Source of the DNA: a virus
Taxonomy: Duplodnaviria > Heunggongvirae > Uroviricota > Caudoviricetes
IMG/VR virus record: IMGVR_UViG_2917408641_000004
Length of the DNA: 44,025 bases
Strand: one strand, 5' to 3'
Positions within the stretch are counted from its first letter, which is position 1, and each line of letters starts with the position of its first letter. This document shows, one piece after another, positions 4,601 through 23,594 of this stretch. The notes beneath the pieces were generated by a model. The model searched no databases and was not told where the DNA came from. It saw only the letters and a list, made by a program, of their open reading frames with translations. Made by a program: the position numbers and the translations under genes.

Positions 4601-5102
4601 TATCGCGTCCTCAACAATGAATTTTGTGATGCAGTGCCTGGTGCCTCCAGGTGACGTTAACCAGTTAACAATTAACGCCGGATACAGAGAATCCACCCAT
4701 AACACTGTTTTTGGTTTTAACTGTTCCGCGTGCGCTTAGCCGCATTCACCGCATCACAAAATTCACTTTAAAAACGGCGGCAGAGCAGTCACGGAGTAAA
4801 ACTGATACCGCCAAACGTCACCAGAAAATTGATAACAGAGGGCGTTGCAGCGGGGTTGTCACTTAAGCGTATGGTCAACCTGACAACTCGGTGTCCTCAA
4901 CGGGGAAGGAATAACCCCGCCATACTTACCGCCGCGCCATTTCGCGGGTTGCCACAACCGGAAGCGCACGGTCGAATTAAATTTAACGACACCGTACAGT
5001 GAGACGAACTTCGCCGTGCGCTTTCGTGTTGTGTGCCTGCTTTTAACCACGTCAGGCGAGGTGGTATCCTTCTTATCCCGAATAACCAAGAAGGAAATCT
5101 AT

Positions 5103-6688: not shown

Positions 6689-7193
6689 ACAGGCTCGTGA
6701 GGCTCTGGATGCCTGGATATGTCGACCAGGAATGACACAGGAGCAGGCGACGATATTAATCACTGAAGCATTCTGGGCTTTGAAAGAGCGCCCGAACATC
6801 GATGTTAAGCGTGTCACAGATGAAGGTGGCGCGGTTGATCAGCGAGCGCTTGGCGTTAATCGAGTGAAGATATTCGAACGCTGGAAGGCTATCGACACCA
6901 GGGATAAGCGTGAAAAGTTCATGGCGCTAGTGCCTGCAATTATGGAGGCTATCCGGATTAATGATTTCAGGTTATATCGTGAAATTAGTGACGGAAAAAG
7001 CATCACGTATATGATCGCCGGGTTAAACAAAGAATATGGCGATGTGGTGGAGTCCGGACTGCTTTTTGCTGATCCTGCCGTAGTGGATCGTGAAACTGAC
7101 GAACTTATAGAAAAAGCAATTGCTTTCAAGCTTGCGTATCGACAGCAATACCAACAAAAAGCTGGATGGAATTATGAGTCTTCTTTTTGCTGA
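6672..7193 (+). CDS. YdaT/CII-like protein
   Basis: 173 aa; start overlaps end of cro-like gene by 17 nt; position and size match the second gene of Rac-type ydaS-ydaT pairs; family assignment by synteny only. Confidence 0.5.
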   Translation: MKITPEQAREALDAWICRPGMTQEQATILITEAFWALKERPNIDVKRVTDEGGAVDQRALGVNRVKIFERWKAIDTRDKREKFMALVPAIMEAIRINDFRLYREISDGKSITYMIAGLNKEYGDVVESGLLFADPAVVDRETDELIEKAIAFKLAYRQQYQQKAGWNYESSFC

Positions 7194-8602: not shown

Positions 8603-8832
8603 GTACATCGGCTACCATTCTCGACATGTGCTGTGGCAGTCGCATGCTCTGGTTCGATAAGAATGACGAATGGTCGATATTTAGCGATATCAGGAAAGAG
8701 GAACATTCGCTATGTGATGGACGTCACCCGATTATTAATCCCGACATTATCGCTGATTTTCGTGCGCTGCCGTGGTTGTCTGCTTTGCATCAAAAGCAGA
8801 CATTACCAGATTTAGACATCTGTTTCCGATAG
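8600..8832 (+). CDS. Small ORF with SAM-methyltransferase motif I-like segment (possible gene fragment)
   Basis: About 77 aa from GTG 8600 (SD GGAGG upstream); segment [13 protein letters not shown] resembles MTase motif I but the protein is far too short to be a complete methyltransferase. Confidence 0.3.
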
Positions 8833-8864
8833 CCCGTTCTGATGCTACACTTTTTGCTATTTTC

Positions 8865-9551
8865 ATGAACCTCATAAACACATTTATGACTGTTGCTGAT
8901 TTCAAACGCCCCAAATTGGAGCTCCCAAACGGGGCAAAAAAACTATTACTGCACTCTTGCTGTGCTCCATGTTCCGGTGAAGTGATGGAGGCGCTTCAGG
9001 CCTCGGGAATCGACTACACCATCTTTTTCTACAACCCGAACATTCATCCTCAGAAAGAGTATTTAATTCGTAAGGATGAGAATATTCGCTTTGCTAAACA
9101 ACACGGCGTGCCATTTATTGATGCTGATTACGACACAGACAACTGGTTTGAGCGAGCCAAAGGAATGGAATGGGAGCCTGAACGAGGGATCCGTTGTACC
9201 ATGTGTTTTGACATGCGTTTTGAGCGGACTGCACTGTATGCCGCTGAAAATGGTTTCAGTGTGATCAGTAGCTCACTGGGCATTTCACGCTGGAAAAATA
9301 TGCAGCAGGTTAACGACTGTGGACGGCGAGCCGTCGCGCATTATCCGGGCATGGTGTACTGGGATTATAACTGGCGAAAACAGGGCGGCTCTTCCCGCAT
9401 GATTGAAATCAGCAAGCGCGAACAATTCTATCAGCAGGAATATTGTGGCTGCGTGTATTCACTGCGCGATACCAATCTACACCGCAAATCTCAGGGACGC
9501 CCTCTAATCAAAATTGGTCAACTGCACTACGGTAAAGAAGGACAGGAATGA
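8865..9551 (+). CDS. queH: Epoxyqueuosine reductase QueH family protein (DUF208)
   Basis: Cysteine motifs [19 protein letters not shown] and QEYCGCVYS characteristic of QueH; ATG at 8865 chosen because the upstream in-frame extension from 8772 is non-conserved. Confidence 0.75.
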
Positions 9552-9672: not shown

Positions 9673-10163
9673 GAAATTAGAGGAAATCTTGCAGCCATGA
9701 TATGGCTTAAAATAACGTTTGATTATTTTACCTGCTGTTTGTCCCTGGTTTAAAGTCGGTTGTCTGATTTGATTACGCGCAACTGACGCTTACGTATTGA
9801 AGTAACGAGCACGAAGACACATATTTATCAGTGCCTGTATACGTCAAGAGCAGGAGATTTATGTGCTGGTTCTCAAATGCACGCTGGCTATTGTGGCTGT
9901 AATGGCAATTTATTGTCTTGTTATTGTTCTTATGGATCACCTTTCTGATTGATTTCATATTGGCGAGGTAACGGTAGTTAAGTAGAATGGCTGCGGGTGC
10001 TTGAGGCTATCTGCCTCGGGCATGAACACCAACGGCAGATAGAGAAAAGCCCCAGTTAACATTACGCGTCCTGCAAGACGCTTAACATTAATCTGAGGCC
10101 AATTTCATGCTAGACACATGTAGGTTAGCCTCTTACGTGCCGAAAGGCAAGGAGAAGCAGGCT

Positions 10164-10319
10164 ATGAAGCAGCAAAAGGCGATGTTAATCGCCCTGATCG
10201 TCATCTGTTTAACCGTCATAGTGACGGCACTGGTAACGAGGAAAGACCTCTGCGAGGTACGAATCCGAACCGGCCAGACGGAGGTCGCTGTCTTCACAGC
10301 TTACGAACCTGAGGAGTAA
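10164..10319 (+). CDS. hokD: Hok/Gef family type I toxin (HokD/RelF-like)
   Basis: 51-aa product MKQQKAMLIALIVICLTVIVTALVTRKDLCEVRIRTGQTEVAVFTAYEPEE: single TM helix plus conserved Hok C-terminus; SD AAGGAG upstream; 3' hairpins and terminator downstream as in hok mRNAs. Confidence 0.85.
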   Translation: MKQQKAMLIALIVICLTVIVTALVTRKDLCEVRIRTGQTEVAVFTAYEPEE

Positions 10320-10388
10320 GAGACCCGGCGAGGGAGAAATCCCTCGCCACCTCTGATGTGGCAGGCATCCTCAACGCACCCGCACTTA

Positions 10389-10415
10389 ACCCGCTTCGGC
10401 GGGTTTTTGTTTTTA
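10389..10415 (+). terminator. Rho-independent terminator of hok transcript
   Basis: ACCCGC-TTCG-GCGGGT hairpin followed by TTTTTGTTTTT; a second hairpin CGAGGGA-GAAA-TCCCTCG lies at about 10329-10346. Confidence 0.7.
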
Positions 10416-10535
10416 TTTTCAACGCGTTTGAAGTTCTGGACGGTGCCGGAATAGAATCAAAAATACTTAAGTAGCGCGCAGGGATAAGAGGGATGGTCCC
10501 TTAAAGGGGAGAGCTAATTATCCGGAAGGATTCTG

Positions 10536-10772
10536 ATGATGAACATCGAAGAACTGCGTAAAATTTTTTGTGAAGATGGCCTCTATGCTGTGTGCGTTGA
10601 AAATGGAAATCTTGTTAGTCATTACCGCATTATGTGTTTGCGAAAGAATGGGGCTGCGTTAATTAATTTTGTGGATGGTCGAGTGACAGACGGATTTATC
10701 TTGCGCGAAGGTGAGTTTGTCACTTCATTACAGGCACTGAAAGAGATCGGAATAAAAGCAGGCTTTTCGTAA
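10536..10772 (+). CDS. Rem-like small protein, 3' end replaced by IS66-family insertion
   Basis: 78-aa ORF whose last codon and stop are supplied by the IS end; removing the IS and one TSD copy restores an 83-aa ORF ending ..GFSAFAEE, the size I recall for Qin Rem; family call by synteny. Confidence 0.5.
   Translation: MMNIEELRKIFCEDGLYAVCVENGNLVSHYRIMCLRKNGAALINFVDGRVTDGFILREGEFVTSLQALKEIGIKAGFS
10761..10768. repeat. 8-bp target-site duplication of IS66-family element (left copy; right copy 14906-14913)
   Basis: GGCTTTTC directly flanks both imperfect terminal inverted repeats. Confidence 0.8.
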
Positions 10773-11121
10773 CCGGCTCATTTAAACCGTCTGGTCTGTT
10801 TCCTCCGGCTCTACAAAAATAATGTCCATCATTTTTAATGGACACTATCGTATGAAACACCGGACCTGGATCACTGAAGCTTTACGTCTTCACTTTGAAG
10901 AACATTTACCCCGGGTTGTGGCCGGGCGTCGCCTGGGTGTACCAAAATCAACAGTTTGTAGTATGTTCGTGCGCTTTCGGAGAGCTGGCCTTTCGTGGCC
11001 TTTGCCCGCAGGCATGTCGGAGCAGGAACTTGATGCCTGCCTTTACGGACAATTTTCCACGGTACCAGTCGTACGTCCTGAAAGCACCGTTATATCCGAA
11101 GCCCCCGTGGTAAAAAAACGT

Positions 11122-11133
11122 CCCCGGCGGCCC
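11122..11133. repeat. 12-bp target-site duplication of IS4 (left copy; right copy 12560-12571)
   Basis: CCCCGGCGGCCC present immediately outside both IS4 ends. Confidence 0.85.
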
Positions 11134-12559
11134 TAATGCCAGTCAGTTAAGCAACTGACTGGCTCTTTTTCGGGGCTGTGGGGTATTTCCAGGGCCTCTC
11201 CTTTACCACTCTCGGGAAGGCCCTTTCCCTTCTTGTCGGTAATTTCACAAGTTGTCCCATACTTGCAAGATCGCGCATCAGCTCCGGTATACGTCCCGGT
11301 GAAGCGCCCTGCAATGTCATCAGCATTCTCATCACCATTCCGCATGATTCTGAGAAACTCAGTTGATTCGGCCAGTAACCTTTCAGATGTTCTGCCATTT
11401 TAATCATCTGATATCTCACCAGATTATAAGCCAGTAAGACACCCCACAGCTCTTGCTCCACAAGCTCCGGCTTTTTACTTCTCAGCGTCAGCCTGCTCAG
11501 TTGCATCGTCTGTTTTATCTCCCTGTATCCCAGTTCGATTTCCCAGCGATGACTGTACAGATCCGCCATTTCTCCTCCGGGGAAGCGCATGGCGTCCGTC
11601 ATCGACGTCAGCAGATGGCAGACTTTTCCTTTGCGCGTCACGGTCAGCAGGCGGGCTGTCACCTCATTTCCCAGCCCCGGCCACTTTTTTCGTGCCTGCG
11701 GGCTGGTTTTCAGCTTCACCAGATGATCGCCTTTACCCAGTTTTCTGATCTCTTCATATTGCGCTCCCTTTCTGAGAGGGATCATCCAGTGGCGGTGTTC
11801 TCCCGCCTGGCTCCAGGCATTTAACAGTCCCAGTGAGTAATAACCTTTATCCATTAACGTCAGGGTGTTATCGCCGGTTTGTTCTATAAGTTGCTCAGCA
11901 AGCTCATTTTCGCTGTTCTTCATCGTGCCGAAGGCTGCAGCCGTCAGCAGATGGCTGGTCAGTTCCATCTGGCAGACCATTTTGACCTGCGGGTAGAGCG
12001 CCGGGTTCCCGGCATGTGTCTGGCGGGGGAAGGCTGCATCGTTCTCTGGTGTATCCGGTGTGCGCCAGAACACACCATCGATGGCCAGCAGGGTCAGGCC
12101 GCACCAGTGCGGATGCGGCGTGGCGTTATGCCAGAGCTGCGCTGTTTTCGTGAACACGCGGCGGACAGCCTCACTTCCCAGACGCTGGCGGGCCTGAATA
12201 ACGGCACTGGGGGCAACGAAGGGGCGATTGCCCGGCAGCATGATGTCCAGGCGATTCACAATCTGGTGAAGAGGTTCTTTACGCTCAAGCGCCATGCCAA
12301 CAATACACCAGACCATCATTTCGAGGGGAAGACGGCGCTTGCGTAGCGTTACAGTACCTGATTCGGCAAGGCAACGAGAGATGAGTTCGGGGTCGAGGTA
12401 ATCCCCCAGAGAAGTCAGTGGGTTACGCAGAGAATCGTAACGGGATACCAAATCAAGGGCCTGTCCAATGAGCATAAAAAAATCCGGAAACGAGTGAGCG
12501 TTTCCGGATTCTTACACAGCCACTGGATCGGTCAACTGATCCTTAACTGATCGGCATTA
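11134..12559 (-). mobile_element. IS4, complete copy
   Basis: 1426 bp, matching the known IS4 length; terminal inverted repeats TAATGCC(A/G)..TCAGTTAAG; single 442-aa transposase; 12-bp TSD within the expected 11-13 bp range. Confidence 0.9.
11147..12475 (-). CDS. insG: IS4 transposase
   Basis: 442-aa ORF filling the IS4 element; IS4-family DDE transposase. Confidence 0.9.
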
Positions 12560-12571
12560 CCCCGGCGGCCC
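12560..12571. repeat. 12-bp target-site duplication of IS4 (right copy)
   Basis: CCCCGGCGGCCC, identical to 11122-11133. Confidence 0.85.
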
Positions 12572-12936
12572 AACTTCCCTTATGAGTTTAAAATCGCCTT
12601 AGTGGAGCAGTCACTGCAGCCCGGAGCCTGTGTGGCGCAGATCGCCCGGGAAAACGGAATCAACGATAACCTGCTCTTCAACTGGCGCCATCAATACCGG
12701 AAAGGTGGCCTGCTGCCTTCCGGAAAAAATATGCCGGCACTGCTTCCCGTGACGTTAACGCCGGAGCCGGATAATAAAATCCCGGCCCCCGCACAGGAAC
12801 CAGAGCAGATAAATACACCGTCCGACAGTCTGTGTTGTGAGCTGGTTCTGCCGGCCGGAACTCTCAGGCTTAAAGGTAAACTGACGCCGGCGTTATTACA
12901 GACACTTATCCGCGAAATAAAAGGGAGCAGCCACTG

Positions 12937-13284
12937 ATGATATCTCTCCCTGCCGGTTCGCGTATCTGGCTGGTTGCAGGTATCACCGATATGCGAAATG
13001 GCTTTAACGGCCTGGCATCAAAAGTTCAGAACGTCCTGAAGGATGACCCGTTCTCCGGACACCTGTTCATCTTCCGCGGACGCCGGGGTGACCAGATAAA
13101 AGTGTTGTGGGCTGACAGTGACGGACTGTGCCTCTTCACCAAACGCCTGGAGCGGGGCCGCTTCGTCTGGCCAGTCACCCGTGACGGCAAGGTGCACCTT
13201 ACTCCGGCTCAGTTATCCATGCTTCCTGAAGGTATCAACTGGAAGCACCCGAAACGAACGGAACGCGCTGGAATCCGCATATAA
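12937..13284 (+). CDS. tnpB: IS66-family TnpB (Orf2)
   Basis: 115 aa; start overlaps tnpA stop (ATGA); typical IS66 Orf2 sequence (..IWLVAGITDMRNGFNGLA..). Confidence 0.85.
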   Translation: MISLPAGSRIWLVAGITDMRNGFNGLASKVQNVLKDDPFSGHLFIFRGRRGDQIKVLWADSDGLCLFTKRLERGRFVWPVTRDGKVHLTPAQLSMLPEGINWKHPKRTERAGIRI

Positions 13285-13303
13285 CCCGTTGTAAAGTGAG
13301 GAT

Positions 13304-14875
13304 ATGGACACCTCACTTGCTCATGAGAACGCCCGCCTGCGGGCACTGTTGCAGACGCAACAGGACACCATCCGCCAGATGGCTGAATACAACCGCCTGC
13401 TCTCACAGCGGGTGGCGGCTTATGCTTCCGAAATCAACCGGCTGAAGGCGCTGGTTGCGAAACTGCAACGTATGCAGTTCGGTAAAAGCTCAGAAAAACT
13501 TCGTGCAAAAACCGAACGGCAGATACAGGAAGCTCAGGAGCGAATCAGCGCACTTCAGGAAGAAATGGCGGAAACGCTGGGTGAGCAATATGACCCGGTA
13601 CTGCCATCCGCCCTGCGCCAGTCTTCAGCCCGTAAACCGTTACCGGCCTCACTTCCCCGTGAAACCCGGGTTATCCGGCCGGAAGAGGAATGCTGTCCTG
13701 CCTGTGGTGGTGAACTCAGTTCTCTGGGATGTGATGTGTCAGAGCAACTGGAGCTTATCAGCAGCGCCTTTAAGGTTATCGAAACACAACGTCCGAAACT
13801 GGCCTGTTGCCGGTGCGACCATATCGTGCAGGCACCAGTACCTTCAAAACCCATTGCACGCAGTTATGCCGGAGCGGGGCTTCTGGCCCATGTTGTCACC
13901 GGGAAATATGCAGACCATCTGCCGTTATACCGCCAGTCAGAAATATACCGTCGTCAGGGAGTGGAGCTGAGCCGTGCCACACTGGGGCGCTGGACCGGTG
14001 CCGTTGCTGAACTGCTGGAGCCGCTGTATGACGTCCTGCGCCAGTATGTGCTGATGCCCGGTAAAGTCCATGCCGATGATATCCCCGTCCCGGTCCAGGA
14101 GCCGGGCAGCGGTAAAACCCGGACAGCCCGGCTGTGGGTCTACGTCCGTGATGACCGCAACGCCGGTTCACAGATGCCCCCGGCGGTCTGGTTCGCGTAC
14201 AGTCCGGACCGGAAAGGTATCCATCCACAAAATCACCTGGCCGGTTACAGCGGTGTGCTTCAGGCCGATGCTTACGGTGGTTACCGGGCGTTATACGAAT
14301 CCGGCAGAATAACGGAAGCCGCGTGTATGGCTCATGCCCGGAGAAAAATCCACGATGTGCATGCAAGAGCGCCCACCGACATCACCACGGAAGCCCTGCA
14401 GCGTATCGGTGAACTGTATGCTATCGAGGCAGAGGTCCGGGGCTGTTCAGCAGAACAGCGTCTGGCGGCAAGAAAAGCCAGAGCCGCGCCACTGATGCAG
14501 TCACTGTATGACTGGATACAGCAACAGATGAAAACACTGTCGCGTCACTCAGATACGGCAAAAGCGTTCGCATACCTGCTGAAACAGTGGGATGCACTGA
14601 ACGTGTACTGCAGTAATGGCTGGGTGGAAATCGACAACAACATCGCAGAGAACGCCTTACGGGGAGTGGCCGTAGGCCGGAAAAACTGGATGTTCGCGGG
14701 TTCCGACAGCGGTGGTGAACATGCGGCGGTGTTGTACTCGCTGATCGGCACATGCCGTCTGAACAATGTGGAGCCAGAAAAGTGGCTGCGTTACGTCATT
14801 GAACATATCCAGGACTGGCCGGCAAACCGGGTACGCGATCTGTTGCCCTGGAAAGTTGATCTGAGCTCTCAGTAA
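13304..14875 (+). CDS. tnpC: IS66-family transposase TnpC
   Basis: 523 aa; N-terminal coiled-coil/leucine zipper, CxxC..CxxC zinc motif (CPACGG..CCRCDH) and DDE-type C-terminal region characteristic of IS66 transposases. Confidence 0.85.
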
Positions 14876-14905
14876 ATATCAATACGGTTCTGACGAGCCG
14901 CTTAC

Positions 14906-19422: not shown

Positions 19423-19722
19423 AAAAATTCCTTAATACTGATAACTTGGCGCACTATACACACGTTCCTGAAGAAAGCTATAGTTTTTTGATGGGGTTGA
19501 AGATGGCTGGATGTCTAAAATAAACATTGCTTCATATGTTCAACTATGCGTTAATGATTGCGTCGGTTTGAAGAACAGACGATATACGAAGTAGTTTACT
19601 AAAGCAGTTCTCATTTCAGGTGTTATTCACTTATTCCTTCTTTGAGTCTCTCCAATTAAGTACGAAGTCGTTTCTGTTATACAAGCCATTTATGCCGAAA
19701 GGCTCAAGTTAAGGAATGTAGA

Positions 19723-19938
19723 ATGTCAAATAAAATGACTGGTTTAGTAAAATGGTTTAACGCTGATAAAGGTTTTGGCTTTATTTCTCCTGTTGATGGT
19801 AGTAAAGATGTGTTTGTGCATTTTTCTGCGATTCAGAATGATAATTTTCGAACCTTATTTGAAGGTCAAAAGGTTACCTTCTCTGTAGAGAGTGGTGCTA
19901 AAGGTCCTGCAGCAGCAAATGTCATAATTACTGATTAA
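19723..19938 (+). CDS. cspB: Cold-shock protein CspB
   Basis: 71-aa product [38 protein letters not shown]..; CspA-family RNP motifs. Confidence 0.8.
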
Positions 19939-20221
19939 AATTAATAGTTTGTCTGTATACGATAACGAAGAAGGCTGATGCCTGAGTGGAGATACAGACA
20001 GAGTGGTGAATATTGGATCTCTTTAATAAATAGTAAGGAGATCCAATACATGAAACAATGACCAGCATATTTGGCAATAACTTAATCAGGAAAAGTATGC
20101 TAACCATTGTGGTGAAGTGCAGGTTTGCTGCATGAATAGTTTTACAGCAGAAGCTAACTGCTAGCATAGCAAAACAAAGTGCGTAAGTGGATGACTCCCA
20201 CAAAAAGCACCACAATATTAA

Positions 20222-22811: not shown

Positions 22812-23174
22812 ATTAATATTAAATCGGATTATTTTTAGCGCTGAATGTGAAATTTAAATAAAAAGGACTCTTCCATGAGTCAAAATCCTTGAAATCTTAA
22901 GGGTAAGATAAAAGGTCATTAGACAGAATGACACGTTTTATTAATAAATAAAGCTATTGTTTCATTCGTGTGTTTTTCTTTACAAAAGTAATCCTTGCTA
23001 TGGTTGGTTAATCATGCGTTAATGGTGTTCTGGTTTGTTACAAAATTATCTGAAGCAGTCATTGTTATAATTTTATTATTTGTACCTCTTGAGATTTCCT
23101 TGTTGGTTTTTCTCTCTGATATTTTTTTTCGGACCATTCTGCCCAAGGGCTAACTTCTTCAAAAGGTAATAATG

Positions 23175-23387
23175 ATGTCTAACAAAATGACTGGTTTAGT
23201 GAAATGGTTTAACCCTGAAAAAGGTTTTGGTTTCATCACGCCGAAAGATGGTAGCAAAGATGTGTTTGTCCATTTCTCAGCTATTCAGAGCAACGATTTC
23301 AAAACGTTAACTGAGAATCAGGAAGTCGAATTTGGTATTGAGAACGGACCTAAAGGCCCCGCGGCTGTTCATGTTGTGGCACTTTGA
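23175..23387 (+). CDS. cspI: Cold-shock protein CspI
   Basis: 70-aa product [70 protein letters not shown]. Confidence 0.8.
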
Positions 23388-23594
23388 GGTAGAAAATATT
23401 ACAAACCATATTCACTTTAGATGCCCGTGTTGCCATGGTTCTCAGTATAGAACATCATCTTTTGATGTTTCTGACAGGAATCCTTTCGGGGCAAAATGTA
23501 TCTTTTGTAAATCAATGATGATTACATTTGATAATATTTCACAATACTTAAATGTTAGCCGTCTGTCGTTAGATTTAAGAAAGTGAAAATGAAG

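Follow-up and report, generated by a model that had tools for sequence, protein, structure and literature searches.

Between 9960 and 10420 of the window, by which we mean the whole 44,025-nt stretch of viral DNA that was analysed (Caudoviricetes; IMG/VR record IMGVR_UViG_2917408641_000004), the plus strand carries a hok toxin gene, the longer overlapping frame mok and a series of sequence elements through which the mRNA of both is predicted to fold. This interval had been proposed as a hok-type toxin locus in an earlier, sequence-only reading, and it frames the unit almost exactly, with the promoter starting at 9960 and the terminator stem lying at 10388–10405. The features described there were all recovered at the positions given, well above what chance would produce. 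Definitions of the mRNA elements were taken from PMC9841398, and the features of the plus strand are as follows.

9960–9988, plus strand: hok promoter found by a sigma-70 promoter scan (−35 TTGGCG at 9960–9965, 17-nt spacer, −10 TAGAAT at 9983–9988)
9995–10412, plus strand: full-length hok mRNA of about 418 nt, with a predicted 5′ end
9995–10006, plus strand: tac, the translational activator element, GGGTGCTTGAGG (RNA GGGUGCUUGAGG), first 12 nt of the mRNA, paired with fbi in the full-length minimum free energy (MFE) structure
10047–10053, plus strand: ucb, the upstream complementary box (anti-SD), AAGCCCC
10095–10132, plus strand: sokT target hairpin, in which the mok SD GAGG(C) (10095–10099) pairs with dcb GCCTC (10128–10132) around an apical loop at 10110–10116, in agreement with the Rfam structure
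10107–10319, plus strand: mok ORF, 70 codons, in the same frame as hok (ORF list)
10149–10154, plus strand: hok Shine-Dalgarno sequence AAGGAG, read from the sequence
10164–10319, plus strand: hok ORF, 51 aa, 100% identical to K-12 HokD
10302–10305, plus strand: TACG motif overlapping the codon of Tyr47, where TadA could edit A to I (Tyr to Cys), read from the sequence
10327–10348, plus strand: 3′ stem-loop of the MFE structure, just past the hok stop codon
10369–10381, plus strand: fbi, the fold-back inhibitory element, CCTCAACGCACCC, forming 12 bp with tac and one bulge at 10375
10388–10415, plus strand: intrinsic terminator of the hok mRNA from a terminator scan (7-bp stem at 10388–10405, then a T run)

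Comparison of the hok product with Pfam revealed a match to PF01848 (Hok/Gef) over the full model (positions 1–42) with 82.9 bits at a cut-off of 22 (E = 1.2e-23), which bears out the earlier description of an intact 51-aa Hok-family toxin. The in-frame extension that had been noticed upstream of it is mok, whose ORF shares 65 of 70 positions with that of MokW in Stx2 phage I and matches PHROG 251 ('MokW-like host killing') with E = 7.7e-33. The mok frame has an SD of its own (GAGG, 8 nt 5′ of its ATG), and translation of hok would be coupled to that of mok. The translation signals of both frames appear intact, leaving the suspicion that mutated hok translation signals might mark the locus as a relic without support in the sequence; moreover, the relic reading as a whole was rejected, since no element shows a defect relative to 68 other cassettes. 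The HokD peptide of K-12, which is identical in sequence, is reported to be toxic when overexpressed (bioRxiv 10.1101/2025.08.07.668861), and editing of the K-12 hokD mRNA has been reported (PMC5630033, PMC12214031).

Across 68 distinct cassettes, conservation in the hok promoter covers the −10 hexamer and the +1 region that follows it, the −35 region varying with the flanking context. The mRNA is predicted to begin at about 9995, where the Rfam model starts and 7 nt past the −10 hexamer. At 9995–10169 the RF01794 'sok' model is matched over its full length (1–157) with 115.3 bits (gathering score 59; E = 1.1e-25). The strand matched is the hok-sense one, and the match extends over the entire hok leader (157 positions). 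Because the model is in effect one of the hok leader, the match marks a hok/sok locus and not the strand or extent of Sok.

Folding of the full-length RNA (9995–10412) gave an MFE of −173.3 kcal/mol (z = −7.9 versus shuffles). In this fold the GCCCC of ucb (10049–10053) pairs with the mok SD at 10095–10099. The tac and fbi elements covary, with compensatory changes across Escherichia, Kluyvera, Photorhabdus, Pantoea and plasmid R1, the alternatives including GGGTGC/GCACCC versus GGGCGC/GCGCCC and GAGG/CCTC versus GAGA/TCTC versus GAAG/CTTC. This covariation and the integrity of every sequence element can be regarded as established. For the nascent RNA (first 32 nt), a metastable hairpin of tac with 10013–10023 is predicted at −18.8 kcal/mol, while the 5′ 59 nt folded alone form a tac/ucb stem at −26.8 kcal/mol that matches the Rfam consensus. 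The MFE structure of the 3′-truncated RNA (9995–10368) in full context shows no switch to tac/ucb; both the metastable hairpin and the ucb/SD pairing persist in it, so what points to a tac/ucb switch is the isolated 5′ fragment together with the Rfam consensus. The sokT hairpin folds locally at −12.4 kcal/mol and is also obtained with 10 further haplotypes of loop and stem. At the 3′ end, the hairpin and terminator that the earlier reading had seen downstream of the toxin gene are both present, at 10327–10348 and at 10388–10405 followed by a T run.

The predicted antisense RNA and its promoter

On the minus strand, two features are predicted.

10122–10150, minus strand: sok promoter (−35 TTGCCT at 10145–10150, 17-nt spacer, −10 TAACCT at 10122–10127)
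10039–10115, minus strand: predicted Sok antisense RNA of about 77 nt, made up of an unpaired 5′ tail, a long hairpin and a 3′ end rich in U

A Sok-like RNA had been expected on this strand from about 10050–10165, and an antisense gene is indeed predicted there; its limits have to be redrawn, the body occupying 10039–10115 and the promoter 10122–10150. The promoter was placed with the help of alignments and published work. Alignment to hok/sok loci, which had been suggested as a means of finding both the sok promoter and mok, placed the two by reference to R1, sokC and sokB, the sok hexamers aligning with those of R1 (TTGCGC/TATCCT), sokB (TTGCCG/TAAGAT) and sokC. The promoter stretch is 100% identical to that of an Sp5-like Stx2 phage (933W/Sp5-type hokW-sokW), and across the 68 distinct cassettes the −35 hexamer is invariant and the −10 hexamer nearly so. 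As the hexamers and the 17-nt spacer are the same as in sokW of O157 prophage Sp5, whose promoter has been validated by experiment, the antisense promoter, whose integrity had been singled out as the key concern, is to be considered intact by sequence. The annotated ends of K-12 sokC and sokB map via the alignment to 10115/10114 and 10039, and the predicted Sok RNA has a fold energy of −30.5 kcal/mol. An 18-nt GC-rich extension (GCGTC…GACGC, 10063–10080) tips the long hairpin of Sok and sokT; it is without counterpart in R1, hokB, hokC and a minority of prophage cassettes (e.g. L035, L085).

One could read the locus as a toxin gene with an ordinary 5′ UTR and no antisense RNA, all the more as a simple sigma-70 scan returned no minus-strand promoter in 10100–10160 and as the Rfam 'sok' match, lying on the plus strand, is no proof of a minus-strand gene. 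The scan missed the sok promoter, which has only 7 of 12 consensus positions. We consider such a reading very improbable, given that on the minus strand the −35, the spacer and the −10 can be aligned with their counterparts in R1, sokC and sokB and are identical to the sokW promoter that was mutated experimentally, and that the modelled minus-strand transcript folds as would be expected of Sok, with tail, long hairpin and U-rich end. In that experiment, primer YO-421 turned the sense sequence TAGGTTA into CCGGCTC and thereby altered the same −10 hexamer, TAACCT, to give a 'pro-less' sokW mutant (PMC8621323). Destruction of the −10 abolished the antitoxin activity and allowed HokW to act as a toxin; protection was regained with sokW provided in trans (PMC8621323). 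The hokW-sokW system is further reported to depend on RNase III and Hfq and to have a 71-nt complementary region (PMC8621323). Production of Sok, its instability and the RNase III-mediated repression of Hok have been demonstrated for the relatives R1 and hokW-sokW only, and would hold for the present locus by analogy.

A variable, putative recognition segment in Sok

Among the 68 distinct cassettes, all encoding the same Hok, nucleotide diversity reaches 0.35 in 10101–10121, a segment that comprises the Sok 5′ tail, the sokT loop and the flanking stem. The peak is a sharp one, with the same value for tail and loop at 10101–10115. Elsewhere in these cassettes it amounts to 0.012 at third-codon positions of hok, 0.01–0.02 in tac and fbi, 0 in the sok −35 hexamer and about 0.06–0.07 in other loops. 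About ten major tail haplotypes can be distinguished, all of which keep the target hairpin (−12 to −13.5 kcal/mol) through compensatory changes in the stem. This hypervariability may not have been reported before.

It is possible, though on balance doubtful, that the hokD/hokW cassettes of lambdoid prophages form about ten specificity groups defined by the Sok tail and sokT loop. If so, each prophage would possess a private antitoxin, and the loss or induction of one would not be masked by the Sok of another, a situation that resembles the antisense loops that define plasmid incompatibility groups. A functional recognition segment of this kind would bear on the coexistence of several related prophages in one cell. 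Alternatively, the variability could reflect relaxed constraint at a site where complementarity is automatic, combined with recombination with hokC-like leaders. Copies within the same genome differ in their Sok tails in 10 of the 11 pairs among the matches listed, but as the haplotype frequencies lead one to expect a difference in about 89% of random pairs, this count carries no weight on whether co-resident copies avoid a shared tail.

Prophage context and the leader-less hokD of K-12

The prophage is Qin-like and lambdoid, and its insertion site adjoins rspA and rspB (rspAB). A stretch of 976 bases around the cassette recurs with 100% identity in the chromosomes of several STEC and other E. 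coli strains, and with 99.8% in REL606, E. coli B, E. coli C and phage HannyBb. In the best-matching genome the gene order runs integrase, exonuclease, ydfD, dicB, repressor, cro-like gene, YdaT, replication genes, QueH, hokD, rem, ydfU, Q antiterminator, and csp and lysis genes, and it is from this order that the cassette is assigned to the early-rightward, nin-like region. The cassette has the same orientation as the neighbouring genes, and its boundaries (about 9976 to about 10408) are conserved across many different flanking contexts. Taken as a whole, the sequence evidence strongly suggests that 9960–10415 is a type I toxin-antitoxin cassette, hok/mok/sok, that belongs to the hokD/hokW subgroup, is complete and probably works, and lies in the early-rightward region of a Qin-like lambdoid prophage. 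As such the finding is not new: the locus is already annotated (RefSeq hokD, protein WP_000813254.1), the Hok family, the hokW/MokW subgroup and the hokD annotation are known, and the enrichment of hok in prophages has been described (bioRxiv 10.1101/2025.08.07.668861).

Several further features of the window deserve mention. Among them are other Qin-type features: a prophage-borne QueH epoxyqueuosine reductase gene (8772–9551, plus strand) lies immediately upstream of the hok region, the DicF sRNA is found at 4775–4826 (minus strand), and two cspA-type thermoregulator leaders are present at 19562–20001 and 23017–23433 (both plus strand), one of them upstream of the position of cspI in the reference genome. 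An IS66-family (ISCro1-like) element at 10769–14905, in the 3′ end of rem, is an insertion relative to K-12 and is itself split by an IS4 element with its transposase at 11147–12475 on the minus strand. At the two edges of the insertion the K-12 coordinates have 8 bp in common, consistent with an 8-bp target duplication. This nested insertion begins some 350 bp past the hok terminator and leaves the cassette untouched.

Just upstream of the cassette, an unannotated hydrophobic ORF of 29 codons (MLVLKCTLAIVAVMAIYCLVIVLMDHLSD) occupies 9863–9952 on the plus strand and starts with GTG, 6 nt after AGGAG, a good SD. It is kept in 14 distinct sequences upstream of hok cassettes with conservative substitutions, 10 of its 20 variable sites falling on third-codon positions, and it recurs in phages HannyBb, mEp460, Tritos and Evi, where it is unannotated on that strand. 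Searches against NCBIfam and PHROGs gave no meaningful match; the product may be a small membrane peptide.

In the Qin prophage of K-12, hokD (relF) is the third gene of relBEF. That the relBE genes are missing here, as the sequence-only reading had stated, was confirmed by tblastn of RelB and RelE over the whole window, which returned nothing better than E = 1.6; where K-12 has relBE next to hokD, the leader is present here. Homology to K-12 Qin breaks off at 6951 and restarts at 10150, 14 nt before the hok ATG, at the hok SD. The K-12 gene encodes an identical Hok, differs by 1 nt over 10150–10420, fbi and terminator included, and sits at the same prophage position, upstream of rem-ydfU-quuQ. 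It retains SD, ORF, fbi and terminator, but the hok promoter, tac, ucb, sokT, the mok start, the sok −10 and most of the sok −35 are absent, with relB, relE, ydfV and flxA in their place. From this two-way comparison the K-12 relBE-hokD looks like a rearranged, leader-less form, in agreement with the statement in the literature that hokD was inactivated by rearrangement.

A survey of complete E. coli genomes revealed at least 80% of the cassette (9976–10410) in 4027 of 5426, or about three quarters, and the K-12 relE-hokD junction in 1173 of 5426. Among 80 viral-contig loci with an identical Hok, the leader lies directly upstream in 77, relBE in two and a 1.1-kb insertion in one. The leader-bearing form is the commoner of the two, and as it occurs in far more genomes, studies of hokD in K-12 deal with the rarer copy, the rearranged one. 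The present locus thus displays hokD with the regulatory leader that K-12 lacks, which is of limited practical value; the complete version is found (99.8%) in well-studied strains such as REL606, E. coli B and E. coli C, which could serve to test the function of a prophage-borne hok/sok.

Two other arrangements were observed. In the IMG/VR contig L083 (1712–3001), about 1.1 kb separates the leader, which ends at the equivalent of 10154, from the ATG of an identical Hok; this is a truly disrupted cassette. In Kluyvera sp. CHPC 1.2972 (L111, 2406–3150), relBE genes 96% identical to those of K-12 are joined at the same point (…GCGTTGAC) to a hok 75% identical to hokD. This junction indicates that relBE-hok occurs outside Qin too and has undergone recombination with different alleles of hok.

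Proposed role and comparison with known systems

From the R1 paradigm and the elements found at the locus we infer transcription, processing, toxicity in context and biological role as follows. The hok promoter would give rise to a stable mRNA of about 418 nt, in which tac is held in the metastable 5′ hairpin during transcription. In the finished RNA, tac would pair with the 3′ fbi and ucb would sequester the mok SD, so that the message is neither translated nor bound by Sok. Slow 3′ trimming would then remove fbi, allowing tac to move to ucb and the mok SD to fold with dcb into the sokT hairpin. The unstable Sok (about 77 nt, minus strand, from 10115 to 10039) would pair through its 5′ tail with the sokT loop, leading to degradation of the duplex. 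Once Sok is depleted, mok and, by coupling, hok would be translated to yield the 51-aa membrane-depolarising peptide.

By analogy with hokW-sokW, the leader of which is nearly identical outside the Sok-tail region, the most likely role is that Hok is made when Sok falls upon induction or loss of the prophage, and that it either hastens growth arrest and phage release or penalises prophage loss. After treatment with mitomycin C, sokW went down and HokW went up, and growth arrest of the deletion mutant came about 40 minutes later (Takada et al. 2021, PMC8621323). A role in prophage biology is accordingly suggested by one study, made on a close relative.

This proposal has to be weighed against two others. 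The cassette might be structurally intact and yet physiologically silent like other chromosomal hok/sok loci, being transcribed, producing no effective Hok and persisting by hitch-hiking on prophages. The chromosomal hokA, hokB and hokC loci showed no post-segregational killing and also failed in rifampicin activation (summarised in bioRxiv 10.1101/2025.08.07.668861), and editing of the K-12 hokD mRNA was reported at just 6%. We nevertheless regard silence as improbable. Conservation of every element in 68 distinct cassettes from many prophage contexts, accompanied by compensatory changes, speaks for purifying selection. A phenotype could be measured for hokW-sokW, a very close locus (PMC8621323), and copies that are truly inactivated look different, with a replacement by relBE in L038, L042 and L090 and the 1.1-kb insertion in L083. 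That the cassette serves mainly in abortive infection or superinfection exclusion, the shut-off of host transcription by a lytic phage depleting Sok, freeing Hok and protecting the population of lysogens, seems to us somewhat less improbable, although still unlikely, since a survey found hok not to be enriched beside defence systems (bioRxiv 10.1101/2025.08.07.668861). Such a role is compatible with the explanation through prophage induction or loss and not exclusive of it.

The known systems closest to the locus are hokW-sokW, K-12 hokD, the hok/sok of R1 and K-12 hokC/sokC. The mok (168 nt) and hok (150 nt) frames of K-12 hokB end at different stop codons; at the present locus mok is in frame with hok, a feature shared with hokC. 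The hokC/sokC (gef) leader of K-12 aligns over its whole extent, and the ends of sokC map to 10115 and 10039. In hokC, however, IS186A ends 20 nt past the stop codon and tac has no strong downstream partner (dG −13.3 versus −21.1 here), while fbi and terminator are intact at the present locus. The hok/sok (parB) system of plasmid R1 contains the same elements in the same order, with tac 169 nt upstream of the hok ATG in both, and follows the same folding logic (PMC9841398). It differs in residing on a plasmid and not in a prophage, in the Sok hairpin, which has the extra 18-nt GC-rich tip (10063–10080) only here, and in the toxin, R1 Hok being just 44% identical to HokW (PMC8621323), of which 47 of 51 residues are identical to the Hok encoded here. 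HokW itself departs from the latter at 4 of the last 8 residues (…VFVDYESEK versus …VFTAYEPEE here); in hokW-sokW, 6 positions of the Sok 5′ tail and target loop differ within 10101–10113, and hokW has another terminator and other flanks. Nevertheless, hokW-sokW of Sakai prophage 5 and the 933W-type Stx2 phages (PMC8621323) shares the same architecture with about 94% identity over 9976–10391, from the hok −10 to fbi, together with an identical sok −35, spacer and −10, the same long hairpin and an in-frame mok, and both cassettes are found in lambdoid prophages.
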